Below are positions 30,037-43,381 of a DNA stretch of 64,000 bases, in pieces. The notes beneath the pieces were generated by a model that did not search any database, was not told the origin of the DNA, and saw only the letters and a program-made list of their open reading frames with translations. The number at the start of each line of letters is the position of its first letter. Position 1 is the first letter of the stretch. The stretch lies in the UHGV virus genome UHGV-0200554, one strand, 5' to 3'. The position numbers and the translations under genes were made by a program. The stretch is from a virus.

Positions 30037-30065
30037 TTGACAACTGTGTGGGAGAGTGTTATACT
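30037..30065 (+). promoter_or_regulatory. sigma70-like promoter with -10 inside GC-clamped hairpin
   Basis: TTGACA 30037-30042, 17-bp spacer, TATACT; GGGAGAG...CTCTCCC inverted repeat (30050-30070). Confidence 0.55.
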
Positions 30066-30094
30066 CTCCCCATCTTAAAAAGAAGGAGAGAGTT

Positions 30095-30289
30095 ATGGCA
30101 ACAGTACATCTTATGGCTATCAAACGTCACAATACTTTGTATGGCCCGATTTATGAAACTGTTCTCGGCAATCTGTATATCATCAATGGGACTAGCTTCA
30201 GCAAAATTGACATTCACCACATCGAAGCGTTTCGTGTAGCAGAGCCAGAGTTAGGTTGCTGGTTCCTTCCTGTAGAATGCAATTTATGA
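30095..30289 (+). CDS. hypothetical protein
   Basis: ORF track trimmed to ATG 30095 (AAGGAGAG RBS). Confidence 0.45.
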   Translation: MATVHLMAIKRHNTLYGPIYETVLGNLYIINGTSFSKIDIHHIEAFRVAEPELGCWFLPVECNL

Positions 30290-30297
30290 GGTGCAGC

Positions 30298-30510
30298 ATG
30301 GCTACTGCAACATGTGTATCTACGCAGCATGACAAATGGGAACTCTTCGAAGAGTATGAGGTCATCGGTGAGCCAAATGAATTTACTATACTGGTAAAAG
30401 CCTGTGATGGTGAAACATGGTGGTTCCATAAGAGCTGTGATTACCCTGGTTACCATTTTGCACGTACTTCAACTGGCAAATACATTTACTTACTGGTGAA
30501 CGAGGACTGA
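30298..30510 (+). CDS. hypothetical protein
   Basis: ORF track trimmed to ATG 30298. Confidence 0.45.
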   Translation: MATATCVSTQHDKWELFEEYEVIGEPNEFTILVKACDGETWWFHKSCDYPGYHFARTSTGKYIYLLVNED

Positions 30511-30511
30511 T

Positions 30512-30856
30512 ATGAAAAACCGTACACATCCGCTCTATCTTCGAGAACGTAATAGTATTGCTATGGTACTGTGCGATATCTTCAATGTTTCAGATCCGTA
30601 CGATACTCACAATATGTGGGAGACAGCACGCATCCTGTTCCCAACACCAGTGATTGTAGCCATCTCAAAGAATGGCTTGGTGAAAAGAGCATGGGATAAG
30701 TTTGGGCAGTCTTACGTCTGGGCTGATCAACTGGGGTGCTGGTTTGAAGAAAGAAACCCTGTTAGCCTGAACAATGAACGTATGCGGGGAATTGATATCA
30801 TCACGGGCAAAAACATTCGCCTGAAAGGCGAGATTGTTTTCTGGCTTCCACAATAA
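30512..30856 (+). CDS. hypothetical protein
   Basis: ORF track. Confidence 0.5.
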   Translation: MKNRTHPLYLRERNSIAMVLCDIFNVSDPYDTHNMWETARILFPTPVIVAISKNGLVKRAWDKFGQSYVWADQLGCWFEERNPVSLNNERMRGIDIITGKNIRLKGEIVFWLPQ

Positions 30857-30868
30857 CAGGAGAGATCA

Positions 30869-31210
30869 ATGAAGAATCAAACAGTAACAATGCAATGGGT
30901 AGATGTTGATGGCGTGGAGAACATGCCAATCGGTGTATATTTCGTATGTATGCGGGACTGTAATGGTCTGCAACAATATGGTGTATGCGAAGTTGTTATG
31001 GCTGGGCAGGGCAAATATGCACATAAAGTTGGCGTGATCAGTGGTCAATTTTATTTTGAATTCCCACCAATCGTAGCATACATGGTTATCCCAGACTATG
31101 TGCCGATTCAGGACGGAAAACGCCGTTGCCCACACTGTGGTAGCACTGATATCGGTATGGCGCGGGACGATTTATTCTGCTTCTGCTGCCGCCGTTTCCT
31201 GGTGGAATAA
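30869..31210 (+). CDS. hypothetical protein with C-terminal zinc-ribbon-like motif
   Basis: CPHCGS...CFCC near C-terminus; AGGAGAG RBS. Confidence 0.5.
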   Translation: MKNQTVTMQWVDVDGVENMPIGVYFVCMRDCNGLQQYGVCEVVMAGQGKYAHKVGVISGQFYFEFPPIVAYMVIPDYVPIQDGKRRCPHCGSTDIGMARDDLFCFCCRRFLVE

Positions 31211-31220
31211 GGAGTGTACT

Positions 31221-31415
31221 ATGTTCGAGCTTAAATCTTGCACAATCGTAGCACCAGGGGATCGTATCCGTATCCCAGGCCGTCACGAAATCCTACAGGT
31301 TAAAAGCATCGAGTCTGTAGGTAACCGTGTTCTCCTGTTCAAATTTGAAAATGGACACCAGGTGTACATGAGAATGAGAAGCAAAGTGTACATTGACAGG
31401 GGTGCTAAAGAATGA
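31221..31415 (+). CDS. hypothetical protein
   Basis: ORF track trimmed to ATG 31221 (AAGGAG RBS). Confidence 0.45.
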   Translation: MFELKSCTIVAPGDRIRIPGRHEILQVKSIESVGNRVLLFKFENGHQVYMRMRSKVYIDRGAKE

Positions 31416-31738
31416 ATGAAGTATGGGAAATCTGTGTAGACGTAGCAGGAATCACGCTTATAGGTGCTCTGGTTATTGCTCTGGCGCTGGTAGGATACAA
31501 GATGGCACTTCTGCCTTTCCTGGAAGCATTCAGCCTGTGTCATTGCTGGCGTAGAGCATATGGACCACAACCTGTAAAAGACTGGTTCACTTTGTACCGT
31601 ATTGCACTATCTTACACGTTTGATCATTCACGCTTAAACTGCATTGAAAGCTATCATGCTGATGGTTGGTGGTGGGTAGGATTATTCAGATGGGAGGTGA
31701 CAGAGGTAACTCCGAAACGAATGCTTAAGAAAAATTGA
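31412..31738 (+). CDS. hypothetical membrane protein
   Basis: ORF track; N-terminal hydrophobic helix; last gene of plus-strand module. Confidence 0.5.
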   Translation: MNEVWEICVDVAGITLIGALVIALALVGYKMALLPFLEAFSLCHCWRRAYGPQPVKDWFTLYRIALSYTFDHSRLNCIESYHADGWWWVGLFRWEVTEVTPKRMLKKN

Positions 31739-32059
31739 TTTTAGAATTATAAAAGTTTTAGATGACAAGGGGAAATCTGTAATAGATTTTCCCTTATTTA
31801 TCAGATATTTGCAGATATTTGAAAATCATTAGAAACTTAGGTAATTAGGAGCGTACGAAAATGGATTTTTTAAAAGCATAAGCAATCATTTAGCAAATTA
31901 GCCAAATAGATTTTAGCCTATTGCTATTGTGTATGCATGTATTTGCATATGCCTTGCACATATCCCCACACACCTCTTCCCACATTCCCACACAGTTCTC
32001 GGTTGACCCGCCAATCTCCCCTCCACAACTCTCCCAGTAATTTCCTTAAGTACTCGATC

Positions 32060-32160
32060 TGTTTTTCAAAATCGAAATCGGATTCTGAAAATCTCGACAG
32101 CTTTTCTCCTCGGTTCTCGATAGGTTTTTTATTTTCGATTTTGGATTCTGGATCTCGGTC
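32060..32160. repeat. inverted repeats (AAAATCGAAAT / ATTTCGATTTT) in non-coding leader
   Basis: AAAATCGAAATCGGATTCTG and TTTTCGATTTTGGATTCTGG copies about 60 bp apart. Confidence 0.45.
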
Positions 32161-32316
32161 TGGTTCTGGCTAGGCCTGCGCCTGAGGAACGAAAGCACTT
32201 TTTTATTTTTGAAAGTGGATTTTGAATTTCTATATAGAAAAAATTTACCCCCTACCATTTTTGGTAGATAGTCACGGTACGTAATTAGCCTGCTAACTAA
32301 ATTTTAGATAGTTTCA

Positions 32317-32500
32317 TGAGTGATTATCACCGTTACTATAAATTGCCGTAACTATAAATCACCGTGCGTTACTATTTTAATTTCACCATGCAACTATAAA
32401 TCACGGGCCGTTATTATTTATATAGAAAACTATTACTAACCGTGCGTTATTACCTCAATTTGCTTAGGTTACTATTAATCACCGTAAGTAACTATTTTTT
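32317..32500. repeat. iteron-like array (CACCGT...ACTAT(A/T)AAT units, about 8 copies)
   Basis: Repeated ATCACCGT and (T/A)ACTATAAAT-like units at irregular spacing; non-coding. Confidence 0.5.
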
Positions 32501-32859
32501 AAATGATAATCATTCTCAAAATATATTGCGTGCATCCCCGGTGATTGTCTCCCGGCCCCTGGTGCCCCGGCTTGATTATATAATAACAGATCCGGCCCCC
32601 ATGTCAACAGCTTTTTTAGAAAAATATTAGTTACAACATCCTGGCGCCACCTGGCAGGGCCATCATGACCATGATCCGGTCCGGCGCTTGCGCCCTGGTC
32701 CATCCTCCGCACATTAGTTACAGCATTCCAACGACCGATCCCCGATAGTCTGCAACCTGGCGGGGCCGCCTGGTCCACTGGACCGCCTCCCCTGGTCCGG
32801 TGGGGAGTCCGGCTTGCAATTCAAAATGTGATCTGTGTCAACCTTTCACCATGTAGCTA

Positions 32860-32888
32860 TTGATCAGGTTACGGCCTAGTGTATTCTA
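32860..32888 (+). promoter_or_regulatory. promoter-like element (TTGATC-17-ATTCTA) with conserved GTATTCTATAG(G/C)TGAA start region
   Basis: Paralogous to element at 38496; followed by purine-rich leader. Confidence 0.4.
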
Positions 32889-32955
32889 TAGGTGAAGGGA
32901 AACAAAGGGGAAACGGAAAGCAAAACACCAGGCCGCAAGGCAGGAGGAAAATAAA

Positions 32956-33132
32956 ATGAAAGGCATGGTTAACAACAACAACGTAAAAGAGAGGGAAATT
33001 ATTGTTAATGGTCGTGAGATTGACAATAAACGCCGGAAAGCTATGCGTGATGCCCTGGTCAACTGGTTGGATTATGAAAAAATGATGGTAATGGCAGCGG
33101 GTGCCGCAGCTGGTGAATTTAACCACAGATAA
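32956..33132 (+). CDS. small hypothetical protein (58 aa)
   Basis: Not in ORF track; GGAGGAAAATAAAATG initiation module; hand translated. Confidence 0.45.
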   Translation: MKGMVNNNNVKEREIIVNGREIDNKRRKAMRDALVNWLDYEKMMVMAAGAAAGEFNHR

Positions 33133-33148
33133 CCACAGGGGGGCAAAG

Positions 33149-33343
33149 GTGTTAGCTTATAATCTTCCAGGCCGTCGCCGTACGGTTGCCGACCAGGTAA
33201 CGGCAAAGGCAGACGTAACAATCAACAACGGGCAGGGCCTTTACAAGTTTAAACGGGGGAACAGCTATACGATCCAGTTTCTTAACCGTTGTGCTTTAAC
33301 ACCTGGTCAGATCAACCATTGGTTTAAAGCTAAAAAATTTTAA
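33149..33343 (+). CDS. hypothetical basic protein
   Basis: ORF track 33101..33343; possible GTG start 33149 after AGGGGGG; start uncertain. Confidence 0.35.
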   Translation: MLAYNLPGRRRTVADQVTAKADVTINNGQGLYKFKRGNSYTIQFLNRCALTPGQINHWFKAKKF

Positions 33344-33351
33344 AAAATTAG

Positions 33352-33380
33352 TTGACACCAGAAAGAAATAAAGTATTATA
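33352..33380 (+). promoter_or_regulatory. sigma70-like promoter with A-tract UP element
   Basis: AAAAAATTAGTTGACA, 17-bp spacer, ATTATA; conserved GAAAGCAGTA downstream. Confidence 0.55.
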
Positions 33381-33428
33381 GATAGTGAAAGCAGTACACA
33401 AGGTTAACAAAATATAAGGAGTAACATC

Positions 33429-33830
33429 ATGAGCGCTTTTAACACTGATTTCGATTTCTCTGGTCTGGAAGAAGTTCGCGATCTTCGTAACTGCCGCCGC
33501 GAAAACGGTTTTTATAAATCTCTGGACCTGGTGGCACTGGACCACAAAATGGACCTGGAAGAAGTAGCAACGATTCGTTTCTACCAGTCACCGCGCGGTA
33601 ACACTGTTTACTGTGTAGTATGGGTACATGAAGCAGGGCACGAATTTTATGCCACTGCTGGCGGGAAAGCTGGTGGCTATGGTTACGATAAAGAGGAGGC
33701 CGCATTACGGGAAGCTATCGAGGCGATGGGTGTAAAAGCTGGCGATTATGCTCACCCTGAAAAATTTTTAATCCAGCTTGCTCGCTACTTCGGATATGAA
33801 AAAGCTAAAGTGATTGAAGCACACGCATAA
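33429..33830 (+). CDS. hypothetical protein
   Basis: ORF track; AAGGAG RBS; CGY-biased Arg codons. Confidence 0.55.
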   Translation: MSAFNTDFDFSGLEEVRDLRNCRRENGFYKSLDLVALDHKMDLEEVATIRFYQSPRGNTVYCVVWVHEAGHEFYATAGGKAGGYGYDKEEAALREAIEAMGVKAGDYAHPEKFLIQLARYFGYEKAKVIEAHA

Positions 33831-33842
33831 GCTGCCTTTTAG

Positions 33843-33863
33843 ATGGCCCCCTGGTGGGGCCAT
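33843..33863 (+). repeat. intergenic palindromic element (TTTTAGATGGCC...GGCCAT family)
   Basis: ATGGCCCC-CTGGT-GGGGCCAT hairpin preceded by GCCTTTTAG and followed by TGATAAAG. Confidence 0.5.
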
Positions 33864-33907
33864 TGATAAAGGTAACTTGGGGCAACAATAACCGAGAGAA
33901 AGAAAAT

Positions 33908-34342
33908 ATGAAACGTTTACCACGCTGGATCCGCTTTATTAATAAACTTGCCGCAGATGAAAAAATCCAGGCTATGCATAAAGATAACCGCGAACGCCGT
34001 GCTGCCTTACGAGATTATCGCCGCATGTTGGCAAAGTTAGCCAATAAAAATGGCGTTCTTAAACCGTTCCGCAAAGTGATCCACCTGGTCGCTATGGGAG
34101 CGCCTAAGGTGGCAAACGTTCCAAACGTCCATAAGATTGATGACCGCGACGTTGTAAGAGATATTGATAAAGATTTTTCTCCGAAGGCCATCAATCAGCG
34201 GATCAACAGCTGCAAAAATAAGAAAGATCTTGATAATTTGTTAGATAGCCTCGACGCTTTAGGGTGTGATTATGATTTCTTAGATGACAAGATTAATAAA
34301 AAATACCGCGAATTGGCTGGTTATCGCGTCAACCGGATTTAA
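33908..34342 (+). CDS. hypothetical basic protein
   Basis: ORF track trimmed to ATG 33908. Confidence 0.5.
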   Translation: MKRLPRWIRFINKLAADEKIQAMHKDNRERRAALRDYRRMLAKLANKNGVLKPFRKVIHLVAMGAPKVANVPNVHKIDDRDVVRDIDKDFSPKAINQRINSCKNKKDLDNLLDSLDALGCDYDFLDDKINKKYRELAGYRVNRI

Positions 34343-34629
34343 CATATCAGAATAGTTGGCCCTGGTGGATCCGATCCGTGCACGGTCCAGGGTATGCCCG
34401 AAAACCTCCCCCATTACGCCGCTACGCCTGTTTTGAAGGTGTGGCGGTGTAGTTGCACCTCTTTGCAAAACACCTCGCCATAATACTTATTTGATGCCTT
34501 ATTTTCGATACGCTCAAATAATGACCAATCAATCGCCCCCACCATGATTTTTTTCTTGCAATCCCCCAATGTATGAATACAATAACAATTGAAGGCAGTA
34601 TTAACAAAAACACAAGAAGGGGAAACAAA

Positions 34630-34800
34630 ATGGATAAAATCTATTACGTTGTTTATCGCGGCCTTAATGTTGCCTGGTACGACAATTTGGCTGAGGCAAT
34701 GGAAGAGGCGCACGACCGTTACGACCTGGGGCGTAACCGCCTTGAAGTGGTGGATAGCGACGGCGTGATCTATTGGTGTAGTGAGGATCTGGAATACTGA
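34630..34800 (+). CDS. small hypothetical protein (56 aa)
   Basis: ORF track 34573..34800 trimmed to ATG 34630 (AAGGGGAAAC RBS). Confidence 0.45.
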   Translation: MDKIYYVVYRGLNVAWYDNLAEAMEEAHDRYDLGRNRLEVVDSDGVIYWCSEDLEY

Positions 34801-34811
34801 AAAAAAAATAG

Positions 34812-34840
34812 TTGACACGACCGTTTGAAAGTGTAGTATA
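34812..34840 (+). promoter_or_regulatory. sigma70-like promoter with A-tract UP element
   Basis: AAAAAAAATAGTTGACA, 17-bp spacer, AGTATA. Confidence 0.5.
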
Positions 34841-34895
34841 TAAACCGAAGGGGAAAGAAATTTCCCAGAGGTAAAAAACAAAGAGGATAAAAATC

Positions 34896-35171
34896 ATGGC
34901 TATCATCGAAAAAGTAAACGTTCCAGCCACTTATAATAAAGGTTATAACGGTTGGAAAAATTACAATCAGTGGAACGTTGCACTGTGGATCAATAACGAC
35001 GAAAGTTTATACTTCTTTGCCCTGGGCTTGATTAATGAGTGTGGCAATAAAGACGCGGCAGCTGATTTGATGGTTTACCGCTTGAAAGAAGAGGGGATCA
35101 CTCATACGCCTGATGGGGTGCCTTACAATAAAACTAACATCCGCGCCGCTATGGTCGGAATGCCGCACTGA
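34896..35171 (+). CDS. hypothetical protein
   Basis: ORF track; RBS GAGGAT. Confidence 0.5.
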   Translation: MAIIEKVNVPATYNKGYNGWKNYNQWNVALWINNDESLYFFALGLINECGNKDAAADLMVYRLKEEGITHTPDGVPYNKTNIRAAMVGMPH

Positions 35172-35247
35172 TAGCCGCCTTACCCTGGGGCCGTGGCAGC
35201 GCCCCATGAATAAGGTTACTACCCCCACAATAACAGGAGGTAACATT

Positions 35248-35358
35248 ATGAACATTATCGCGGCAATCATTGTAGGCTATGCCCTCTTTTTGCTGGGCTT
35301 GCACCTGGCGGCAGTTATCAAAGGCCTGATCGATTTCTTTAAAAAAGATGAAAAATAG
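35248..35358 (+). CDS. small membrane peptide (36 aa)
   Basis: ORF track 35113..35358 trimmed to ATG 35248 with AGGAGG RBS; hydrophobic. Confidence 0.4.
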   Translation: MNIIAAIIVGYALFLLGLHLAAVIKGLIDFFKKDEK

Positions 35359-35360
35359 TG

Positions 35361-35389
35361 TTGACAGGTGAGAGAAAATAAATATACTT
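35361..35389 (+). promoter_or_regulatory. sigma70-like promoter
   Basis: TTGACA 35361-35366, 17-bp spacer, ATACTT; GAAAGCAGTA downstream. Confidence 0.5.
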
Positions 35390-35438
35390 AACCATGAAAG
35401 CAGTAAACGAGATTAATAAAACACAGGAGAAAAAGATC

Positions 35439-35849
35439 ATGAAAACTACTTTCCGTAATGCAAATGGTTTAACTGCATTCGCTTTAGCTTGTGGATATGT
35501 TCAAATGGTAGAGGGGCGGGATCGTGAAATGGTGGATCTGTTTAAAGCCCACGGTTGCTACCATGTTCGCGCTTTTAATGCTGATGGCGAGCGGCAAGCA
35601 TGGTTTAGTGTGCCATCTTTAACTGATGCCCGTCGCCATTGGAAAGAACTGGTAAAACTGATTTTCGGTGCACGCATTGCACAAGTGAAACGCTGCAAAC
35701 GTTACGAAGTGCGCCACGTCCTGGACCTGAGAGGGGAGGCAGTTTACCAGGTTATCTATCGCTACGATGGGGAGTCTCGCCACGTCGGCTACTGTGAAAA
35801 CGTGGACGCGGCATGGATGATTGCACACCGCGACTATGTAAGCCTATAG
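35439..35849 (+). CDS. hypothetical protein
   Basis: ORF track trimmed to ATG 35439 (CAGGAGAAAAAG RBS). Confidence 0.5.
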   Translation: MKTTFRNANGLTAFALACGYVQMVEGRDREMVDLFKAHGCYHVRAFNADGERQAWFSVPSLTDARRHWKELVKLIFGARIAQVKRCKRYEVRHVLDLRGEAVYQVIYRYDGESRHVGYCENVDAAWMIAHRDYVSL

Positions 35850-35872
35850 GTTATTTTTCGGTGGCCTGGGTA

Positions 35873-35901
35873 TTGACACCGGGCCATCTATAAAGTAACC
35901 T
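35873..35901 (+). promoter_or_regulatory. promoter-like element with -35 inside palindromic loop
   Basis: GGTGGCC-TGGGTATTGACACC-GGGCCATC; TTGACA 35873-35878. Confidence 0.35.
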
Positions 35902-35933
35902 AAAGATCCACACAACGAAGGGGGGGAACAATC

Positions 35934-36026
35934 ATGAAAAACTATTCTCACTATTTGATCCGTCGTGATGTTATGATTATGGCCCTGGGCTACCTGGTTA
36001 TGTTTGCTTTTCGTGTAATGCTGTAA
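35934..36026 (+). CDS. small hydrophobic peptide (30 aa)
   Basis: Not in ORF track; RBS GAAGGGGGGGAA; hand translated. Confidence 0.35.
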   Translation: MKNYSHYLIRRDVMIMALGYLVMFAFRVML

Positions 36027-36044
36027 AATAAATTAAAAAATTAG

Positions 36045-36073
36045 TTGACACAGTAGCAAAAATAAGTAAACTT
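36045..36073 (+). promoter_or_regulatory. sigma70-like promoter with A-tract UP element
   Basis: AAAAAATTAGTTGACA; weak -10; GAAAGAAGTAATTAG downstream. Confidence 0.45.
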
Positions 36074-36117
36074 AAAACTGAAAGAAGTAATTAGTAAACC
36101 ACAAAGAGGAAAACATC

Positions 36118-36477
36118 ATGAAACGCATCAATAAGGCTATGGCTAACGCAATCCGTGCTTATGTAGTTGACAGCTTAAACTTTGACGACATGGAACACGA
36201 CAACGACGTTGAGGAACTGAAAGCACGCTTTGAAGCTGAGCATTTTGACGGCTATTATATCCGTCGCTTTAACGGCAACCGTGTAAAAGCAATGGCCGAC
36301 TGGTTAGCAGGACTGCCGAGCGGTGTAGACATTGACTTCTGTAATGATGACATTTTAAACCGCTTGCGTGAGTTCGGAATCATTGACGAAAAAACTAAAG
36401 AAGACACTAAAGATCGCTACATTGACGAATGGTTTGAACTGATGGCGCGGTTTTATGTGGAACTAGCATACAAATAA
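36118..36477 (+). CDS. hypothetical protein
   Basis: ORF track; AGAGGAAAACATCATG module. Confidence 0.55.
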   Translation: MKRINKAMANAIRAYVVDSLNFDDMEHDNDVEELKARFEAEHFDGYYIRRFNGNRVKAMADWLAGLPSGVDIDFCNDDILNRLREFGIIDEKTKEDTKDRYIDEWFELMARFYVELAYK

Positions 36478-36516
36478 AATAGCTTGCTTTTAGATGGCCT
36501 CGAAAAAAAAAAATAG

Positions 36517-36545
36517 TTGACACGGGGCCATCGATAAAGTAAACT
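36517..36545 (+). promoter_or_regulatory. promoter-like element with -35 inside TTTTAGATGGCC...GGCCATC palindrome
   Basis: GATGGCC-TCGAAAAAAAAAAATAGTTGACACG-GGGCCATC; TTGACA 36517-36522. Confidence 0.4.
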
Positions 36546-36583
36546 AACACACAGTAAGAAGTAACAACAAAGGAGAAAACATT

Positions 36584-36922
36584 ATGAACGCTAACATTGA
36601 ACTGATTGCACGTCGTGCCGCCCTGGTTGCAGCTATCGAACAATTGAACAATAAAATTGAAAACTTTGAAATTGATCCAGATGACTACGAAAACGACTAC
36701 GATGATTTACTAGACGAAGGCGGTGCGGTAGTGGTAGGCGGTTGCGAATTTCTCCCGTCTAGAATCCTCCGCGAACTGGATCCGATTGCTTATCGTTGCG
36801 GCCTGAATGATTATATAGACAACATTGATGTAAGCGATGACGCAAACTATTGTGATTTGTGTGACGATCTGGCTGACCTTGAGGCAGAACTAGGGGAAGT
36901 CGAGGAAGCGCTACGTAACTAA
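36584..36922 (+). CDS. highly acidic small protein (DNA-mimic candidate)
   Basis: ORF track; 112 aa very rich in Asp/Glu (DPDDYENDYDDLLDE..., DVSDDANYCDLCDDLADLEAELGEVEE). Confidence 0.55.
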   Translation: MNANIELIARRAALVAAIEQLNNKIENFEIDPDDYENDYDDLLDEGGAVVVGGCEFLPSRILRELDPIAYRCGLNDYIDNIDVSDDANYCDLCDDLADLEAELGEVEEALRN

Positions 36923-36933
36923 GTTGCCTTTTA

Positions 36934-36957
36934 GATGGCCTCCCTGGCGGGGCCATC
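36934..36957 (+). repeat. intergenic palindromic element (TTTTAGATGGCC...GGCCATC family)
   Basis: GATGGCC-TCCCTGGCGG-GGCCATC preceded by GCCTTTTA, followed by CATAAAG. Confidence 0.5.
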
Positions 36958-37001
36958 CATAAAGATAATTTAGTGTAACCACAATAAAAAGGAGTTACGC
37001 A

Positions 37002-37250
37002 ATGGCAAAATTAATTAACTTTGCAGCGGTGGACCTGGTAAAAGCTGATTGGTATTATAGCAATGGTCGCGCCGTTTGGTGGCGTGAAGGGGGTGCCGAG
37101 GGCAAAGTAAAAGCGCGTATGATTAAAGGTTACCATTTAGATCGCCCTGTAATTCGTATCAATGGGAAGCTGGTCGCTTTCATGCATATCAAAGCGGTTG
37201 ACGATATTGAAAAAATTTTGAACGTCAACTATTTTAAAATGTTAGGGTGA
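37002..37250 (+). CDS. hypothetical protein
   Basis: ORF track; AAGGAG RBS. Confidence 0.5.
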   Translation: MAKLINFAAVDLVKADWYYSNGRAVWWREGGAEGKVKARMIKGYHLDRPVIRINGKLVAFMHIKAVDDIEKILNVNYFKMLG

Positions 37251-37339
37251 CATGCCAGGCGGGGGCCGTTAGTCCGGCCCCCTCTATCCAACCAGGAGGA
37301 GGTGACACTATGCCCAGTTAACAACAGAGAGGAAAATAT

Positions 37340-37678
37340 ATGGACCTCATGACGTGCATACTCGCATTTATTGCAATAGGTGTAGTCTGGAACAAAGTAA
37401 AAAACCAGAGTTATTACGCCAGATGCCAGGCTTTTCGGGTGAATCCGTGGGATATTGATCCGGGTGCTGATTATGTTATCAAGTACCAGGACCGACACGG
37501 CAAACAATATGTAACGCCGTCGCCGATACCGGCCTATTGCTTGCTGGAATACACAGACAAGATAAAACAGGCAGGTTTTTTAATTGTTGACCTGTGGGGC
37601 CGCCACGGTGACGCGAAAAAATTTATTAAAGCAGTGGCTGCAAATATTGCAGCACAAGAAAACGACGATGAAGAGTAA
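37340..37678 (+). CDS. hypothetical protein with N-terminal hydrophobic segment
   Basis: ORF track; GAGAGGAAAATATATG. Confidence 0.5.
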   Translation: MDLMTCILAFIAIGVVWNKVKNQSYYARCQAFRVNPWDIDPGADYVIKYQDRHGKQYVTPSPIPAYCLLEYTDKIKQAGFLIVDLWGRHGDAKKFIKAVAANIAAQENDDEE

Positions 37679-37692
37679 CAGGAGCGCCGATT

Positions 37693-37914
37693 ATGAACAT
37701 GGTAAACTTTGAAAAAATTACTAAGCGCAATCATTTATCTGACGAACTACCGGAACGCCGCCAGCGTAACAACAAGCTGAATAAACCGCGTCGATTTGGT
37801 AAACTGTGGCGCAACTATTACGACCGTAATTTACGCCGCCTGTTACTTGAACGTGAACGCCAACAAATGAGATACGCAGCACGGCGGGAACGGATGAAAG
37901 CAGACGAAATTTAA
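37693..37914 (+). CDS. Arg-rich basic small protein
   Basis: ORF track; RRQRNNKLNKPRR...RRERMK. Confidence 0.5.
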   Translation: MNMVNFEKITKRNHLSDELPERRQRNNKLNKPRRFGKLWRNYYDRNLRRLLLERERQQMRYAARRERMKADEI

Positions 37915-37930
37915 CCGATAGGCCCCCAGG

Positions 37931-37954
37931 TGGGGGCCTTTCTTCATTTGTAAC
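37931..37954 (+). terminator. rho-independent terminator
   Basis: GGCCCCCA-GG-TGGGGGCC hairpin then TTTCTT. Confidence 0.6.
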
Positions 37955-38154
37955 ATAGCGCAATCAATTTTAAGGCCCTTAAAACGCCCTACAACGCAAA
38001 GAAGCCTAAAGGTGAACAATTGCATTACCCGCCCCCAATTAGTAATTTGTGATCAAGATCTCACAAAAATTAATAGGTAAAAACCTTATTTACTTCTTAT
38101 AGGATCTGCATACCATTTTAATTGAAAGAAGAAACACAGCAGGAGGAAAATAAA

Positions 38155-38364
38155 ATGGTCTACTGTGATTATGCCAATGATGCACTGGGCCGCTATGAGA
38201 AAGGCCGTTATTATGACCTGAGCGAAATAATTGATAACGAGGATTATTACATCGATAAGAATGATGATCATCTAGTCGTTATCCATCGCGTAGTCGATCC
38301 GATGTGCTTCGTGGACGTTAGCCCGATTGTGGCACGCTTTGAAATTATGGTATTGGAGGCTTGA
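38155..38364 (+). CDS. hypothetical acidic protein
   Basis: ORF track trimmed to ATG 38155 (CAGGAGGAAAATAAAATG). Confidence 0.5.
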   Translation: MVYCDYANDALGRYEKGRYYDLSEIIDNEDYYIDKNDDHLVVIHRVVDPMCFVDVSPIVARFEIMVLEA

Positions 38365-38366
38365 TT

Positions 38367-38468
38367 ATGTTACTTGAAATGCTGATGAATCCGATTATTT
38401 CTATGGGCCTGATCTTTGTAGTTGTCTGCCTGGTTGTTGGTTTTATCTTGAGCAATATGCGGAAGTAA
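38367..38468 (+). CDS. small membrane peptide (33 aa)
   Basis: Not in ORF track; hydrophobic; TGATTATG coupling; hand translated. Confidence 0.35.
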   Translation: MLLEMLMNPIISMGLIFVVVCLVVGFILSNMRK

Positions 38469-38495
38469 AAATTTTTAAAAAGCTATGAAAAAGTG

Positions 38496-38526
38496 TTGAC
38501 ACGGCCCCCCGGTTTGGTATTCTATA
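38496..38526 (+). promoter_or_regulatory. sigma70-like promoter with conserved GTATTCTATAGCTGAA start region
   Basis: TTGACA 38496-38501, 17-bp spacer, ATTCTA; paralogous to 32860 element; followed by about 250-nt purine-rich leader. Confidence 0.5.
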
Positions 38527-38777
38527 GCTGAAAGGAAAAGAAAGGGAACAAGAAGGAAAGTTCCGGGAGCGGGAAAAGAAGGGTAAGGGAAAAGCCTTGA
38601 AGCATAGCTAACCGAAGGACCGAGGGAGCCGGGAGCGGCCCTAAAAGATACTCAAAGAAGTAAAAAGAAGTTGACAAGGTAACACAAAGCAGTAAAATAA
38701 AGTTGAAAGGGAAGGATGCAGGGAGCAACAAGGACCGGATAAACCGGGGGGAGCTGAAAGAAAACGAGGAAAATAAA

Positions 38778-38864
38778 ATGAAAGACTACTACAAAGCAAA
38801 CGAATATGAAAGGGTAGCAGATTTCATTAAAGAAATGTTAAAAGGTCTGAATAATAAAAAATGA
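38778..38864 (+). CDS. tiny ORF (28 aa)
   Basis: GAGGAAAATAAAATG module; hand translated; coding status uncertain. Confidence 0.3.
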   Translation: MKDYYKANEYERVADFIKEMLKGLNNKK

Positions 38865-38872
38865 GGTGGGGT

Positions 38873-38986
38873 ATGAAAAACAAGCAAGAAAGGCCCGAAG
38901 ATGACAAATTTACATGGCGTGAGCTTTTAAACATCTGGTACATCATTTACGGGCAACATTATAAACACAGAGGAGGGAGGTTATAA
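38873..38986 (+). CDS. tiny ORF (37 aa)
   Basis: RBS GAGGTGGGG; followed by GGAGGGAGG-TTATAAA-CCTCCCACC hairpin; coding status uncertain. Confidence 0.3.
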   Translation: MKNKQERPEDDKFTWRELLNIWYIIYGQHYKHRGGRL

Positions 38987-39033
38987 ACCTCCCACCACAA
39001 AGAAAGAAACAACAACCAAGCGAGGAAAATAAA

Positions 39034-39261
39034 ATGAGCAACGTTATCAAGTTCCCCATGAATCGTGTAAAACCATCTAAAGGTGTGGTTAATTTCGATA
39101 ATAAGGTTTACCGCATGGCCTGGATCGTTAGAAACAGCGACAATAAGGGCGATATCTGGGTAGAGGCATTCAGGCGGGAGGTTGATGCTATTTTTTCAAG
39201 AAGTGTAAGGGGAGGCCGGATCATTAGAGGATTTTTCAAAGCGGCACCGGAAGAGGTTTAA
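39034..39261 (+). CDS. hypothetical protein
   Basis: ORF track; GCGAGGAAAATAAAATG module. Confidence 0.5.
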   Translation: MSNVIKFPMNRVKPSKGVVNFDNKVYRMAWIVRNSDNKGDIWVEAFRREVDAIFSRSVRGGRIIRGFFKAAPEEV

Positions 39262-39266
39262 AAAGG

Positions 39267-39300
39267 TTGACAAATCATAAAAAACAAGTAGACTGATAAT
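39267..39300 (+). promoter_or_regulatory. sigma70-like promoter (spacer ambiguous)
   Basis: AAAAAGGTTGACA; GATAAT -10 candidate; CGAAAGCAGTA downstream. Confidence 0.4.
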
Positions 39301-39336
39301 CGAAAGCAGTAAACAATTTAAAAGGAGAACATAATC

Positions 39337-39531
39337 ATGAAACACATCAACATCGTAAACCTGAAAAAAGTTTGCAAAATTGCAATTTTTGTGGAAGGTG
39401 TCGAGGCTTATCGTTGCGACTACGAAGATTATAAAGATGCGTTAGCTTTCCTCCTGGACGTGGCACACCACAACAATCTAGACTATGAAGCCATCGAGGC
39501 AGCCGAAAAAGTTATGGCAATTGCCGCATGA
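39337..39531 (+). CDS. hypothetical protein
   Basis: ORF track; AAGGAGAACATAATCATG. Confidence 0.5.
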   Translation: MKHINIVNLKKVCKIAIFVEGVEAYRCDYEDYKDALAFLLDVAHHNNLDYEAIEAAEKVMAIAA

Positions 39532-39542
39532 GTTAGCTTTTA

Positions 39543-39569
39543 GATGGTCCACGATGCGAAAGTGGATCA
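39543..39569 (+). repeat. intergenic palindromic element (TTTTAGATGG...CATCAATAAAG family)
   Basis: ATGGTCCAC-GATGCGAAA-GTGGATCAT preceded by GCTTTTAG. Confidence 0.45.
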
Positions 39570-39612
39570 TCAATAAAGAAAACTCAACCACGAAGCAAGA
39601 AGGAGAAACATC

Positions 39613-39843
39613 ATGGACCTTATGACAGCTGTTGCAACATACGACTATAAAAACTTTTTTGATGTAGTCATGATTAAAAAACCAGCTAACGCCCGGATGC
39701 CTGCAAATGGTTACGGTAAAAAATTACCGACTAACTGGATGATCAATTTCGAGGGCCGTATGCGCCGCGTCTATGTTGATATCTGTGGCAATTCTGGACA
39801 CAGGTACATCATGGTTAAAGGCCGTAAATTTACTATCATGTAA
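39613..39843 (+). CDS. hypothetical protein
   Basis: ORF track; AGGAGAAACATCATG. Confidence 0.5.
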   Translation: MDLMTAVATYDYKNFFDVVMIKKPANARMPANGYGKKLPTNWMINFEGRMRRVYVDICGNSGHRYIMVKGRKFTIM

Positions 39844-39904
39844 CACGATTTCAACCAGGGCCGGAAGTCCGGCCCTATCATCAACCAACAAAGGGGATCA
39901 AAAA

Positions 39905-40024
39905 ATGAAAGACAAGCCTCGACCTTGCAGCGATACAATTTACCATCTGATAGCATGGTGTGAGATCCTGGCAATTGAAGCCCTTATGGGTGTTGGCATT
40001 TACTTTATAGCGATCTATAATTAA
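39905..40024 (+). CDS. small membrane peptide (39 aa)
   Basis: ORF track 39773..40024 trimmed to ATG 39905 (AAAGGGGA RBS). Confidence 0.35.
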   Translation: MKDKPRPCSDTIYHLIAWCEILAIEALMGVGIYFIAIYN

Positions 40025-40057
40025 CGCGAAAGGAAATAGCCATGAGGAATAAAAGCA

Positions 40058-40414
40058 ATGAGAATCATCGACCTGTTAAACCGTATGCCGGACGTCAACG
40101 AGATGGCCCCCGATATGAACGAAATTGATCGAGAAGCTGCCGAAAAAGCGGCCCGTAAAATTAAATGCCGTGGGGCCGCTATCGGTGCGGTGCTTTTTGG
40201 CCTTGCTTATGCTCATATTGATTTGGTCCATAACATTTTCCACAATGCACCGATCAAAATCGTGTTAGCCTGGATTGTCTGCTACGTGTGCGGTGAGTAC
40301 ATTTACCCGGTTGCCAAAAAATTGGCCCCGTGGGCCGTCCTGGGTGCGGTGATCTATTATGTTGCGCCTGTGATTATTGCAATCGTAAAACATTACACAG
40401 CGCAACAAATGTAA
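40058..40414 (+). CDS. membrane protein
   Basis: ORF track; multiple hydrophobic helices. Confidence 0.5.
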   Translation: MRIIDLLNRMPDVNEMAPDMNEIDREAAEKAARKIKCRGAAIGAVLFGLAYAHIDLVHNIFHNAPIKIVLAWIVCYVCGEYIYPVAKKLAPWAVLGAVIYYVAPVIIAIVKHYTAQQM

Positions 40415-40425
40415 GAGATTCTAAG

Positions 40426-40449
40426 GGCCGCAAATAAGCGGCCTTTTTT
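40426..40449 (+). terminator. rho-independent terminator (GGCCGCAAATAAGCGGCC + T6)
   Basis: Perfect 6-bp stem, AAATAA loop, TTTTTT; identical hairpin recurs at 43944. Confidence 0.75.
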
Positions 40450-40753
40450 ATGGCCCCGCCTCCTGTGTTTAAAATCCTTCCTGTAAGCCCCGCCATTGAG
40501 ATTTACCCGCAAGATAAGCAAGTGTAAAGCCCCACCATTCCAGGCCGTTGCAGGCCCTGCCAGGTGCCTAAAAATCGATTTATACGCTTCCACTATTGCC
40601 AACCTTCAAAGCGATCCAGACTTAAAAGTGTTGCCCCTGCAAAATGAGAATAGTTATCATCTTATAAATTTTTCTTGCAATGTGGTCTGTTGTGTGTATA
40701 CTTATTCTTGAAAGGGGAATACCTCCCCCACCAACAACAAAGGAGTTAAAATT

Positions 40754-41035
40754 ATGTTCCCTAACCTATTCCCTGGTGCGGTTATCAATTTTGAAGCCCG
40801 TTATTTGCAAGCTGGTATGATTATCATTCGAAATGATCGCCCATTGAAATTAACTAGGGTAGAATACAATGAAGGCCAGGCCCCTGGCGAGGAAACTGTA
40901 GACTACTTCTTCATGTATGCAGATGAGGATCCAAATGATAACACTGGCGAATGGTTTAACTTCTTCCTGCCGGACGAAATGATTAAAGTGCTTTATTATC
41001 CTGGTAACCGTTATCCGCTTCATGCGCTTTTCTAA
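40754..41035 (+). CDS. hypothetical protein
   Basis: ORF track; AAGGAG RBS. Confidence 0.5.
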   Translation: MFPNLFPGAVINFEARYLQAGMIIIRNDRPLKLTRVEYNEGQAPGEETVDYFFMYADEDPNDNTGEWFNFFLPDEMIKVLYYPGNRYPLHALF

Positions 41036-41130
41036 AAAAAATCTTCATAAAGGCTTGCAATGTGCAGGCCTTTTTCCTACTATAAAGGTGAAGAAAGAAG
41101 TAAGGCCAACAGTTAGAGGAGTAACAAATT

Positions 41131-41340
41131 ATGGGCATGGGAAGAGATAAACGTAAAGCGGCGAAAGCAAGAAAAGCGGCAGCAAAGGCCGCACCTGTTA
41201 AAGCTGTACCGTACCACGTCAATATAAACAACCTGGAAGTAATGAACAATCCGGCCCCTATGGAAGAATTTAACGATGCGGATTGGAGGGCGGTAGCAAG
41301 AATGGTTATCCGGCTTGAACGCCTTGCCAGGGAAGAGTAA
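41131..41340 (+). CDS. Lys/Ala-rich basic small protein
   Basis: ORF track; AGAGGAG RBS. Confidence 0.5.
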   Translation: MGMGRDKRKAAKARKAAAKAAPVKAVPYHVNINNLEVMNNPAPMEEFNDADWRAVARMVIRLERLAREE

Positions 41341-41361
41341 AAAAGTTAGAAAAAAAAACGG

Positions 41362-41389
41362 TTGACACAGAATAGAGAAGGCCTATAAT
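41362..41389 (+). promoter_or_regulatory. sigma70-like promoter TTGACA-16-TATAAT with A-tract UP element
   Basis: AAAAAAAAACGGTTGACA; TATAAT 41384-41389; GAAAGAAGTAATTAG downstream. Confidence 0.6.
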
Positions 41390-41439
41390 TAAAGTGAAAG
41401 AAGTAATTAGAAACAACAAAATAAGAAGAGGTAAGTATC

Positions 41440-41706
41440 ATGAAAATGGTAGACGTTAAAGGCATCAAGAACGTTAAAATGCAAAAAAATACTCCCGCAA
41501 ACGTTCTTAAAAAAGCCCTGAGCATCCTAGAAGCACACAACGCAAAAACGGTGCATCCTGTTAAATTAAATTGCGGTTATGGCTATAAATACAATATTAA
41601 TAAAGACTGGAGGCTGTTAAACCGTGATGGCGAATTTAAAGATTGGTTAATTGTTGAGCACTTGGAGTATAATCGTCTGGTTGGCGTAAAAGGCGCTCAT
41701 AAATAA
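41440..41706 (+). CDS. hypothetical basic protein
   Basis: ORF track. Confidence 0.5.
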   Translation: MKMVDVKGIKNVKMQKNTPANVLKKALSILEAHNAKTVHPVKLNCGYGYKYNINKDWRLLNRDGEFKDWLIVEHLEYNRLVGVKGAHK

Positions 41707-41751
41707 CGCCAGAACATGAAAACACAGCATAAAACACTAAGAGGGAACGCC

Positions 41752-41931
41752 ATGATTAGAGAATCCCAAATACTTTACGAAAATGGCAACTACTGGATCC
41801 TTGAGGCTAAACCGGGGGTTTACCAGGTGATGGTAAAAGGTTTAACGCATTCGACTTGCGATAGCGCCTACGCAGATTTTGATCTAGCATTGGCCCGGTG
41901 TGAGTACCTGGCACGAAGAGAAAACGCATAA
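41752..41931 (+). CDS. hypothetical protein
   Basis: ORF track 41716..41931 trimmed to ATG 41752 (AGAGGGAA RBS). Confidence 0.45.
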   Translation: MIRESQILYENGNYWILEAKPGVYQVMVKGLTHSTCDSAYADFDLALARCEYLARRENA

Positions 41932-41937
41932 AAGAAA

Positions 41938-41960
41938 GGCCCCACCCAGGGGCCTTAACT
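41938..41960 (+). terminator. terminator-like hairpin
   Basis: GGCCCC-ACCCA-GGGGCC then TTAACTTT. Confidence 0.45.
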
Positions 41961-41986
41961 TTATGAAAAAAAATCTGAAAAAATAG

Positions 41987-42015
41987 TTGACACCTTGCTG
42001 GGATAGTATATTATT
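41987..42015 (+). promoter_or_regulatory. sigma70-like promoter with A-tract UP element
   Basis: GAAAAAATAGTTGACA; TATATTATT -10 region; GAAAGCAGTA downstream. Confidence 0.5.
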
Positions 42016-42057
42016 AAATTGAAAGCAGTACTAAACCACTTGAAAGAGGAAAAGATC

Positions 42058-42540
42058 ATGAAAGCGTTCAAATATGTTTTAGCGGCCCTGGCGATGGTTA
42101 TCGGTGTAAATGTGAATGCTGGCGGTTTTAGAGTCGAGGCCCCCGAGCATATCAATCCGGTTTATGTGAAAGAAATTTTAATGAATTGCGCCGGGGAAAT
42201 GGTTGCACCTGATGCGGTGTTTAATCCTGATGCACCGATCAACGTTAAAAAAGGTTGGCTGGCTAAAGCTGACAAAGAATGTAAAACATTGGTAAATAAT
42301 GTTATCGTTCACGCCCTGATTGTTGACCTGATTATCAAGAAAGGCCCTGAAAATATGAAGGGCATGGACGAAGAGGAGTTTAAAGAGTATTTCTATAACG
42401 AAGAAATGAAAGTGGAGAATTACCATTTTGATGAAAACGGTTATGAAGATGTTAAAGCTAACTTGAAAGATGTTTACAATCTTGCGCTTGAAAATCCTAA
42501 AGCCGCCCATGCTATCAAGGTGCGAATGATGGGAAAATAA
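42058..42540 (+). CDS. secreted/periplasmic protein (signal peptide)
   Basis: ATG 42058 with AGAGGAAAAG RBS; N-terminus MKAFKYVLAALAMVIGVNVNA-GG resembles a Sec signal peptide with AXA-like site. Confidence 0.55.
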   Translation: MKAFKYVLAALAMVIGVNVNAGGFRVEAPEHINPVYVKEILMNCAGEMVAPDAVFNPDAPINVKKGWLAKADKECKTLVNNVIVHALIVDLIIKKGPENMKGMDEEEFKEYFYNEEMKVENYHFDENGYEDVKANLKDVYNLALENPKAAHAIKVRMMGK

Positions 42541-42544
42541 AAGT

Positions 42545-42573
42545 ATTGACAAGCTGCCAGGTTGTTGTAAGAT
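42545..42573 (+). promoter_or_regulatory. sigma70-like promoter
   Basis: TTGACA 42545-42550; weak -10 TAAGAT. Confidence 0.4.
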
Positions 42574-42617
42574 GTAAATAAAAGAAGTACCACACCAAAT
42601 AAGAGGAGTACCAAATC

Positions 42618-42797
42618 ATGAAACGGAATATTAAAAAGGTCAACAACCTGGTAAATGTTGCAATGCGTGAACGTGAAAATGCTCTAGACCTTCTCCCCGA
42701 TGACGATATCGATGAGGAGGTGGCAGAAAAAGCCGTCTACCTGGCTAAAAACCTTGAGAATTTCGACATGCACGAACTGTTAAAAATGGCCCTGTAA
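42618..42797 (+). CDS. small acidic protein (59 aa)
   Basis: Not in ORF track; AAGAGGAG RBS; hand translated to TAA 42795-42797. Confidence 0.45.
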   Translation: MKRNIKKVNNLVNVAMRERENALDLLPDDDIDEEVAEKAVYLAKNLENFDMHELLKMAL

Positions 42798-42849
42798 GGC
42801 GGGGCCGATACCCCGCCAGCTATCCACCAAATCGAAAGGAGTGATTATT

Positions 42850-43146
42850 ATGTTTATCCCTGCAAACGGTTTATTCTTCTTTGACGGTATGATCGACAAT
42901 GCCGCCGTAATGGTCGAGATTGCCAACAAAAACGGCGGCCAGGTGATGGCATTCCGTGATGACCATGACCATGATCGATGGTTAGAGGTCGAGATCCAAA
43001 AAGTGGACGAAAAAAGCTATCTAGTGATCTACCGCCTCTTTGAAGACGGTCGCCAGGAGGCAGGGGATCAGGCCATCTTCCCGCGCTACATGGTCCAGGG
43101 TGCGATCATCGCTTTCGTGAACGATGTTTTCCCTGTTGAAGAATAA
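42850..43146 (+). CDS. hypothetical protein
   Basis: ORF track; ATG 42850 with AAAGGAG RBS. Confidence 0.5.
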   Translation: MFIPANGLFFFDGMIDNAAVMVEIANKNGGQVMAFRDDHDHDRWLEVEIQKVDEKSYLVIYRLFEDGRQEAGDQAIFPRYMVQGAIIAFVNDVFPVEE

Positions 43147-43353
43147 CCGACTATACTCGAAAGCTGAAAATCAAAAAATAGCCCATCTAATCGCCACACA
43201 GGCGGGATAAACCTGGGGAGGCCTTGCAAGTGCATAGCCTCCTTTTTCATGCCCTTAAAACGCTTCCTGTTGCGTTTCCTGCGATACGGTCCAGGCCGTG
43301 ACGGCGGTCCGGTCCGGTGTAGGGTGTTCAAATGTTGTAACTAAAAATAATCC

Positions 43354-43381
43354 TTGCACCGATTCACAAATAGGCTATAAT
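43354..43381 (+). promoter_or_regulatory. sigma70-like promoter TTGCAC-16-TATAAT
   Basis: TATAAT 43376-43381; GAAAGAGGTAATTAC downstream. Confidence 0.5.

Follow-up and report, generated by a model that had tools for sequence, protein, structure and literature searches.

Conserved intergenic hairpin cassettes, some with an embedded predicted early promoter, in the early gene array of rV5-like phages

The 64,000 nt of the virus genome UHGV-0200554 analysed here (the window) contain five related palindromic elements between small early genes, which we name A, E, B, C and D, and a degenerate relative, F. Together with their counterparts in other genomes, they form a real, conserved and so far unannotated family of regulatory cassettes of rV5-like phages. 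The existence and conservation of the family are practically beyond doubt. The function that we infer is composite. On balance, the elements are probably bifunctional intergenic cassettes of early genes, which combine a promoter with a hairpin for RNase III-type processing or stabilisation of RNA.

The 10-mer TTTTAGATGG has four exact matches in the window, all on the + strand, at 33837, 36488, 36929 and 39538. The 3' half of the palindrome, GGCCATYNATAAAG, is found without mismatches at 33858, 35882, 36526 and 36951, and with 2 mismatches at 39565. When up to 2 mismatches are allowed, there are 10 matches compared to 3.2 expected, a number that none of 100 shuffles reached. Reading of the sequence and a relaxed pattern search delimited five elements, which together span 33828-39586 on the + strand (Table 1). 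A covariance model, built from 21 copies and run over the whole window, returned exactly these five as strong matches, all on the + strand, with 59-68 bits. The test is partly circular for the window copies, but the four copies of Escherichia phage EmilHeitz (Bas49), which were left out of model building, score 63-74 bits. Overall, scores on the + strand are 59-78 bits, versus 16-40 bits on the - strand. A first-pass annotation of this DNA had described four palindromic copies after stop codons. The palindromes are real and share the exact 10-mer four times, but the number of distinct copies is five. Moreover, the entries at 36483 and 36490, listed as separate copies, are one and the same element, B, and the palindromes extend much further than had been indicated, to 52-69 nt.

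Table 1. Coordinates and properties of the hairpin elements in the window and in phage EmilHeitz/Bas49 (MFE, minimum free energy)
Element	Position	Strand	Features	Upstream stop codon	Score (bits)	MFE	z-score
A	33828..33879	+	three-tier hairpin, no -35 box, loop CCCTGGTGG	TAA, first 3 nt of element (gene 33429-33830)	61.1	-27.4	-3.4
E	35846..35903	+	subtype TTTTCGGTGG...CCATCTATAAAG, hairpin with embedded predicted promoter	TAG, 35847-35849	63.1	-30.6 (minus strand just -18.9)	-6.0
B	36479..36547	+	hairpin, 26-nt loop with A-tract and TTGACA		68.1		-5.75
C	36920..36972	+	hairpin, no -35 box	TAA, 36920-36922	63.2		
D	39529..39586	+	hairpin, no -35 box	TGA, 39529-39531	59		-6.0
F	35168..35226	+	degenerate relative GCCTTA...CCCCATGAATAAGGTTACT, same layout, weak fold		no match by covariance model		-1.5
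EmilHeitz/Bas49 elements	85177-85227, 85797-85847, 86131-86182, 89530-89581 (record positions)						

Each element occupies nearly the entire intergenic spacer, leaving about 25-35 nt to the next ATG. The first three bases of A, C and D are the stop codon of the preceding gene; in E the codon is offset by 1 nt, and in B its end is 1 nt upstream of the stem. The stop codons are thus found at or beside the first bases of the lower stem, in line with the first reading, which had placed the copies just after stop codons. The independently annotated ends of the EmilHeitz coding sequences show the same pattern of stop-codon placement.

Fold prediction, one of the checks that had been suggested, brings all five copies into one shape (z-scores between -2.9 and -6.0). 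At its base is a lower stem with 10-12 pairs, then comes a conserved internal loop in which 2 nt (UA or UC) face 3 nt (NAU). The upper stem beyond it has 9-10 pairs and is capped by a variable apex of 3-26 nt. The predicted helix comprises about 22 pairs in all copies, which is backed by covariation. The upper stem is GAUGGCC/GGCCAUC or GGUGGYC/GRCCAUC. In D, it takes the form of the variant GAUGGUCCAC/GUGGAUCAUC, with a compensatory change from C-G to U-A and one G.U pair. The 3' strand of the lower stem holds a -10-like hexamer, which pairs with the stop-codon region, and the 3' flank of the elements reads NAUAAAG(U/A/G)AA. Two sequence subtypes, AGAUGG and CGGUGG, can be distinguished, each of which is kept across genera including its G.U pairs.

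Covariation was assessed on a MAFFT alignment of the 21 copies, which had not been fitted to the structure; the consensus structure itself was derived from the folds of the window copies. Standard pairs are found in 93% of 399 alignment cells, versus 31-51% when the partners are slid against each other. The number of cells with double changes, 32, was reached by none of 500 shuffles. Compensatory changes affect 7 pairs overall and 6 of the 12 pairs of the lower stem. As an example, CCAC/GUGG in D is replaced by CCGC/GCGG in the orthologue of the relative L007. The lower stems differ among copies (AGUUUA/UAAACU, AAAUUUA/UAAAUUU, GCC/GGU and GAGUU/AACUC). A function of the hairpin at the RNA level is therefore very probable. 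It weighs against this reading that many rows of the alignment are orthologous, so that the covarying cells are not independent events.

The two strands are not equivalent. G.U pairs outnumber A.C mismatches by 42 to 11, and the + strand RNA folds more stably than the - strand RNA in 23 of the 25 copies examined, by a mean of 6.2 kcal/mol and by up to 17 kcal/mol in the CGGUGG subtype. The excess of G.U pairs and the stability of the sense strand indicate that the object of selection is the + strand, that is, the read-through transcript. The same data bear on the possibility that the palindrome acts purely in DNA, as the operator of a dimeric repressor, as a cruciform or supercoil switch over the promoter, or as a recombination hotspot. 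Such a role could be proposed since the palindrome overlaps a promoter, gene insertions and deletions between relatives border on the elements, and B has a loop that is chimeric with a canonical promoter. A two-strand cruciform is difficult to reconcile with the preference for G.U over A.C and with minus-strand hairpins as weak as -8 kcal/mol, and intergenic junctions are expected under any viable gene shuffling. For a duplex-DNA operator, the variation in the spacing of the half-sites, from 7 to 26 bp, is unsuitable, and this variant was rejected on these grounds and on those of the G.U strand asymmetry. Overall, we regard a purely DNA-level element as very unlikely.

The window is a phage segment that is distantly related to the rV5-like coliphages (Vequintavirus), to which megablast finds only short stretches of 73-88% identity. 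Its gene order matches that of EmilHeitz, with methyltransferases, primase/helicase and DNA polymerase followed by a long + strand array of small genes. In the window, this array extends from 28 to 44 kb and is dense in TTGACA-N16/17-TAnnnT promoters preceded by A-tracts. The open reading frames (ORFs) that flank the elements belong to real phage gene families (PHROGs) of unknown function, and Pfam contributes only one DUF. The complete EmilHeitz genome carries four copies inside 4.5 kb of the early array and none in the other ~135 kb. C is positionally orthologous to EmilHeitz element 2 (el2), which carries TTGACA, E to element 3 (el3), and D to element 4 (el4). The cores are 63-77% identical between window and EmilHeitz, the 150-nt flanks 43-52%. 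The upper stem, the internal loop (UA/NAU) and the CUUU/AAAG pairing are nearly invariant between genera, with 31-57% amino acid identity of the products of the flanking genes.

The motif scan of the genome and its relatives, also suggested at the outset, reveals that the family recurs in rV5-like phages. A 49-nt copy of the rV5 type is present at ≥95% identity in 121 GenBank phage records, all of them rV5-like, at about three places per genome and mostly without an annotated feature. BLAST searches with two variants of the element found matches in rV5-like records only. In IMG/VR, the motif occurs in five contigs, whose lengths range from 14.8 to 141 kb, with four at 136-141 kb, and the two closest relatives share the same set of five elements. 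No match to the covariance model was obtained in the first 50 kb of phi92, and no element follows the distant homologues of gene 36584-36922 in seven other viral contigs. A search of 5,426 E. coli genomes detected no copies, only one chance partial match of 31 nt inside ppx (E = 0.08), and an Rfam scan of 28-46 kb, at E up to 1, identified nothing on the elements. The element is also absent from the promoter and terminator tables of the rV5 genome paper (33 promoters, 20 terminators), where the spacer criterion of N15-17 would miss a spacing of 18 nt. The designation of the palindromes as phage-specific was therefore appropriate. Among the records with the element, 17 (MG0656xx) are labelled as Campylobacter phages with C. 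jejuni as the host, despite being rV5-like genomes of the coliphage type; these host labels are probably wrong.

About half of the elements carry a predicted promoter. The presence of TTGACA inside the loop, already seen in the first reading, is confirmed at 35873 and 36517. What had been overlooked is that the box is located 17-18 nt 5' of a TAAAYT/TAACCT hexamer within the same element, and that in phages of the rV5 type the loop is usually the -35 box itself. In E, a -35 box (TTGACA, 35873-35878) and a -10 box (TAACCT, 35896-35901) are separated by a 17-nt spacer. The same spacing is found in B (TTGACA, 36517-36522; TAAACT, 36540-36545; promoter score 10/12), where the -35 box is located at the 3' end of the 26-nt loop. 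Copies of the rV5 type have the -35 box as the apex (GATGGCC-TTGACA-CCAGGGCCATC-AATAAAG-TAAACT) and an 18-nt spacer. The distance from TTGACA to the hexamer is 17-18 nt irrespective of the length of the loop, which varies from 4 to 26 nt. In total, sigma-70-like -35 and -10 boxes with a spacing of about 17 bp and an AT-rich tract upstream are present in 13 of the 25 copies examined, among them B and E, and not in A, C and D. The copies that lack a -35 box have the most degenerate hexamers (GTAACT, AAAACT). In three pairs of positional orthologues that differ in -35 status (C/el2, E/el3 and D/el4), the -35 box co-occurs with the TA that starts the hexamer. This correlated presence and absence suggests a real promoter in about half of the copies, and a function of the hairpin only in the rest. 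We consider it likely that the copies with a -35 box are promoters, as predicted from their sequence. The weak -10 hexamers (TAAACT matches at 4/6 positions, TAACCT at 3/6) and the 18-nt spacer of the rV5 type speak against it.

A 20-mer in the loop of B, AAAAAAAAATAGTTGACACG, is identical to a segment of the canonical promoter at 34812, and the leader of B resembles that of the canonical promoter at 36045. B thus appears to be a chimera of two cassette types. Leaders in this region follow a pattern of their own. The canonical early promoters at 33352, 35361, 36045, 39267, 41362, 41987 and 42546 share the leader motif GAAAG(C/A)AGTA(A), about 8-18 nt after the -10 box, and the hairpin-type cassettes have CA-rich leaders instead (e.g. 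aaccacaataa).

For A, C and D, one may ask whether they are phage-specific middle promoters, recognised by a host RNA polymerase that is remodelled in the style of T4 sigma appropriation, with GGCCATCNATAAAG as the activator box. The conserved block is located directly 5' of the -10-like hexamer, and its distance from the start codon is fixed at 35-45 nt; moreover, phages of the rV5 type encode an anti-sigma factor (PMC3606486). However, this explanation does not account for the conservation of the left arm, which is just as strong, nor for the covariation between lower stem and stop-codon region or the strand asymmetry, and it is precisely the copies without a -35 box that have the most degraded hexamers. 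We therefore consider middle promoters highly improbable. Other DNA sites were rejected as well. For an IHF site (WATCAANNNNTTR), ATCAA is, by inspection, present in some copies only and the TTR part in none. For a T4-type late promoter (TATAAATA) or the rV5 late motif TggTAaAAtA, TATAAAG is found only in the E/el3 subtype and not throughout the family.

The layout of stop codon, hairpin, promoter, Shine-Dalgarno sequence and ATG is the one found in the promoter-early stem-loops (PeSLs) of T4-like phages (Arbiol et al. 2010, PMC2839356; Comeau et al. 2014, PMC4122927). This raises the question whether the hairpins are attenuators or terminators, as in classical PeSLs, so that they would stop or damp read-through and insulate each small gene, with re-initiation at the promoter if there is one. 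In RB49/phi1, the decrease in lacZ expression caused by a PeSL stem-loop was as large as that caused by rrnB T1 (PMC2839356). In the present family, a U-tract follows the stem in no copy. As the first-pass annotation had pointed out, the T-tract lies 5' of the stem. There is none 3' of it. None of the five elements passes a scan for a hairpin plus T-run, which does pick up the true U-tract terminators present nearby at the ends of operons (37920 and 43940). Intrinsic termination can hence be rejected, in agreement with the earlier statement that the elements are not canonical terminators. In addition, A, C and D are placed between genes that share an upstream promoter, and the downstream genes need read-through; efficient termination would silence them, since they have no promoter of their own. 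An example is the path from the promoter at 36517 through gene 36584-36922, element C and gene 37002-37250 to the terminator at 37920. Finally, the lower stem of 12 pairs, AU-rich and covarying, would be superfluous in a terminator. Attenuation is thus rather unlikely.

The lower stem is also what directs attention to RNase III. With this selected stem, the helix reaches about 22 pairs, interrupted at its centre by an asymmetric internal loop. [quoted passage not shown] A quasi-continuous helix of ~20-22 pairs, as is characteristic of RNase III substrates, is found in the elements according to prediction and covariation. As neither a terminator nor a simple 3' stabiliser would require the selected lower stem, and as the helix matches the reactivity epitopes of RNase III, we favour RNase III-type processing or stabilisation. 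The earlier idea of a family of processing sites is thus retained for the RNA hairpin, on the strength of its anatomy and of the analogy with T7. RNase III itself as the acting nuclease is suggested by the same analogy and can be named only tentatively.

In the model that we prefer, the whole intergenic palindrome would fold into the helix in read-through transcripts and would serve as an RNase III-type processing site, a site for the stabilisation of 3'-ends, or both, like the intercistronic sites in the early operon of T7. Cutting of the polycistronic early RNA would yield units with a protective 3' hairpin. In duplex DNA, the same sequence would be a sigma-70 early promoter wherever the apical TTGACA is suitably spaced from the hexamer, as in B, E and most copies of the rV5 type, and transcripts would start just 3' of the hairpin. 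A, C and D would have lost, or never had, both hexamers and be hairpins only. Together with the surrounding canonical promoter cassettes, the elements may also act as joints for the gain, loss and swap of small early genes between relatives.

Several observations do not fit this model easily. The 2x3 internal loop is smaller, and the lower stem more regular, than in the T7 sites, so that both strands might be cut, or the RNA bound and not cleaved. The strict sequence conservation of the upper stem and internal loop across genera exceeds the needs of RNase III and may reflect a sequence-specific protein partner or gene conversion between copies. A literature search for a Vequintavirus transcriptome turned up no paper.

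The conservation may alternatively suggest that the folded hairpin is bound by a phage or host protein with sequence specificity, such as one that regulates the translation or stability of early mRNAs. The near-invariance of upper stem, internal loop and CUUU/AAAG despite the divergence of the flanking genes would be explained in this way, as would the conservation of both subtypes, AGAUGG and CGGUGG, across genera with their G.U pairs. Gene conversion could also keep the sequences alike, no candidate RNA-binding protein was identified, and the neighbouring genes all belong to PHROG families of unknown function. We judge such a binding site to be quite unlikely. A more elaborate scheme, which is speculative and also unlikely, would have one 55-nt palindrome read twice. 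In DNA, it would be an early promoter, and in read-through RNA a site of cleavage or binding, recognised through its sequence by RNase III or a dedicated phage protein, so that processed and primary transcripts would have a near-identical 5' leader. The terminating ribosome at the stop codon would then gate the helix and the cleavage site. If true, this would represent a compact switch that joins translation, processing and initiation and is conserved across the rV5-like phages.

The relatives L003 and L007 offer a view of the cassettes in gene shuffling. Both are about 88-90% identical to the window, and collinearity is lost exactly after the leader of element A. At the 3' edge of A, genes are inserted over 0.7 kb in L003 and 1.2 kb in L007. 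A segment of 0.6 kb that ends just 3' of F is absent from L007, which also has an extra gene flanked by duplicated copies of the promoter at 35361. In the case of D and el4, the upstream genes are homologous (31% amino acid identity of the products), and the downstream genes are unrelated. Breakpoints thus fall at the 3' edge of A, at that of F, and downstream of D/el4. The pattern fits cassette-wise shuffling of the kind that has been proposed for PeSLs. However, the breakpoints are located at the edge of the cassette, in the Shine-Dalgarno region, and not within the hairpin. With the resolved junction in this region, and with viable junctions being necessarily intergenic, the element may, but need not, have a causal role in recombination. 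Tandem gene duplication was considered as a source of the repeats and rejected, as no relationship could be detected between the protein encoded upstream of A and that encoded upstream of E (E = 0.084).

The insert of L003 ends in a cassette of the same design with a different stem, TATTTTTCAAGCCCCC-tattgacac-GGGGGGCTT-TATAAAG-TATGAT. This cassette (L003:2128-2200) has an unrelated upper stem, AAGCCCCC/GGGGGCTT, with TTGACA in the loop, TATAAAG, and TATGAT as the -10 box. It suggests that the cassette design recurs, and not just this sequence family.

Further combinations of promoters and hairpins are present in the window. A terminator-like hairpin at 26914 directly follows the promoter at 26885, in the 5' untranslated region (26885-26945), a terminator at 25136 abuts the promoter at 25163 (25136-25190), and at the promoter at 30037 a hairpin, GGGAGAG/CTCTCCC, overlaps the -10 box (30037-30070). 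At 37261-37282 and 39858-39875, there is a second family of GC-rich intergenic hairpins that lack a U-tract, with the pattern GGCCG-nnAG-TCCGGCC and then (C)TATC(C/A)A(A/C)CCA; similar hairpins are located at 42798-42817 and 38975-38993. The members of this family are likewise placed between early genes, just 5' of a Shine-Dalgarno sequence. A purine-rich stretch of about 310 nt without an ORF, 38469-38777, in which two strong promoters of the sigma-70-like type are located (at 38496 and 38671), could represent a long leader or a non-coding RNA.

Base composition and modification sites also vary along the window. The Dcm site CCWGG is over-represented, with 162 occurrences versus 98.7 +/- 9.3 in dinucleotide shuffles. 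Its density is 4.6/kb in the early-gene array (28000-44000) versus 1.8-2.0/kb elsewhere. Of the 21 hairpin copies, 17 contain the site, which is close to the apex in the copies inspected, and relatives encode a Dcm-like methyltransferase. The region 44000-46000, at the end of the + strand array and just before the strand switch, has a low GC content (0.37) and is probably the counterpart of the region that the rV5 map shows as 'non-coding'. A hairpin at 44755-44821 in this region has a sub-threshold match to the plastid psbJ motif (E = 0.039), the only hit of the Rfam scan.

The rV5-like phages are widely isolated and are used for therapy and biocontrol, and the regulation of their early genes is essentially uncharted. 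The rV5 genome paper neither lists the sites described here nor explains how the many small early genes of rV5 are individually expressed. The cassette family provides concrete targets for transcript mapping and allows better annotation of at least 120 genomes. As promoter-on and promoter-off versions of one hairpin occur naturally, the two functions could be separated with their help. The logic of a promoter combined with a stem-loop, as in the PeSLs of T4-like phages, and that of the T7 RNase III sites would be extended to a third phage lineage.

With respect to known systems, the elements share with intrinsic terminators only the GC-rich hairpin directly after a gene; the T-tract on the 5' side, the lack of a 3' U-tract, and the dependence of the downstream genes on read-through set them apart. 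The first-pass annotation had compared them to REP elements. The comparison holds loosely, for short, imperfect intergenic palindromes 3' of stop codons, which in the case of REP/BIME are able to stabilise the upstream mRNA. In contrast to REP/BIME, the family has no copies in the E. coli genomes searched, and membership in a host REP family was rejected. There are no BIME arrays, just 4-5 clustered copies per genome, an orientation strictly with transcription, and an embedded promoter.

The T7 early intergenic regions contain what we take to be the RNase III sites R0.3, R0.5, R1, R1.1 and R1.3, which are not annotated in the GenBank record that was used; their placement reportedly goes back to Dunn and Studier in 1983. 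Folding gives all five regions an upper stem that is GC-rich and 9-10 pairs long, or 13 pairs in the last one, and none has a U-tract. Two of them, located after genes 0.4 and 0.7, begin at a UGA stop codon, which pairs in an AU-rich lower stem, and adjoin the annotated E. coli promoters B and C. In both phages, related hairpins are thus located in the intergenic regions of an early operon transcribed by host RNA polymerase, start at or near the upstream stop, and are interleaved with promoters. A GC-rich upper stem of 9-10 pairs, a loop of 4-5 nt, an internal loop, an AU-rich lower stem and the absence of a U-tract are common features, as is a helix of about two turns, typical of RNase III substrates (PMC1540722). 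In contrast, there is no sequence similarity, the present elements differ in internal loop and lower stem as discussed above and have the -35 box in the apex, and cleavage is a prediction in their case.

The nearest described analogue, which had been overlooked, is the PeSL cassette. Like PeSLs, the elements combine, in about half of the copies, a predicted sigma-70-type early promoter, preceded by an AT-rich upstream tract, with a stem-loop, and they recur in a plastic early region between small genes whose function is unknown. Copies with a degraded promoter exist in both cases, and some insertions and deletions between close relatives abut the cassettes. A stable stem-loop at or over a promoter before a small ORF, which is among the PeSL criteria, is likewise present. 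The lineage is different, since the window and all matches are related to Vequintavirus and not T4-like, and there are only 4-5 copies per genome. The geometry also differs. In RB49, the PeSL stem-loop is located between the -35 and -10 boxes or over the -10 box, and in PST upstream of the promoter, whereas the hairpin described here encloses the -35 box at its apex and pairs the -10 box with the stop-codon region, in a two-tier helix of ~22 pairs with a conserved internal loop. About half of the copies are promoterless and yet retain the full hairpin, and there is no U-tract. The criteria for PeSLs include termination or attenuation by the stem-loop and mini-circles that arise by recombination between cassettes; in the present family, the lack of a U-tract speaks against intrinsic termination. 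The cassette can thus be regarded as a new geometric variant of two known ideas, the PeSLs of T4-like phages and the intercistronic processing hairpins of T7.

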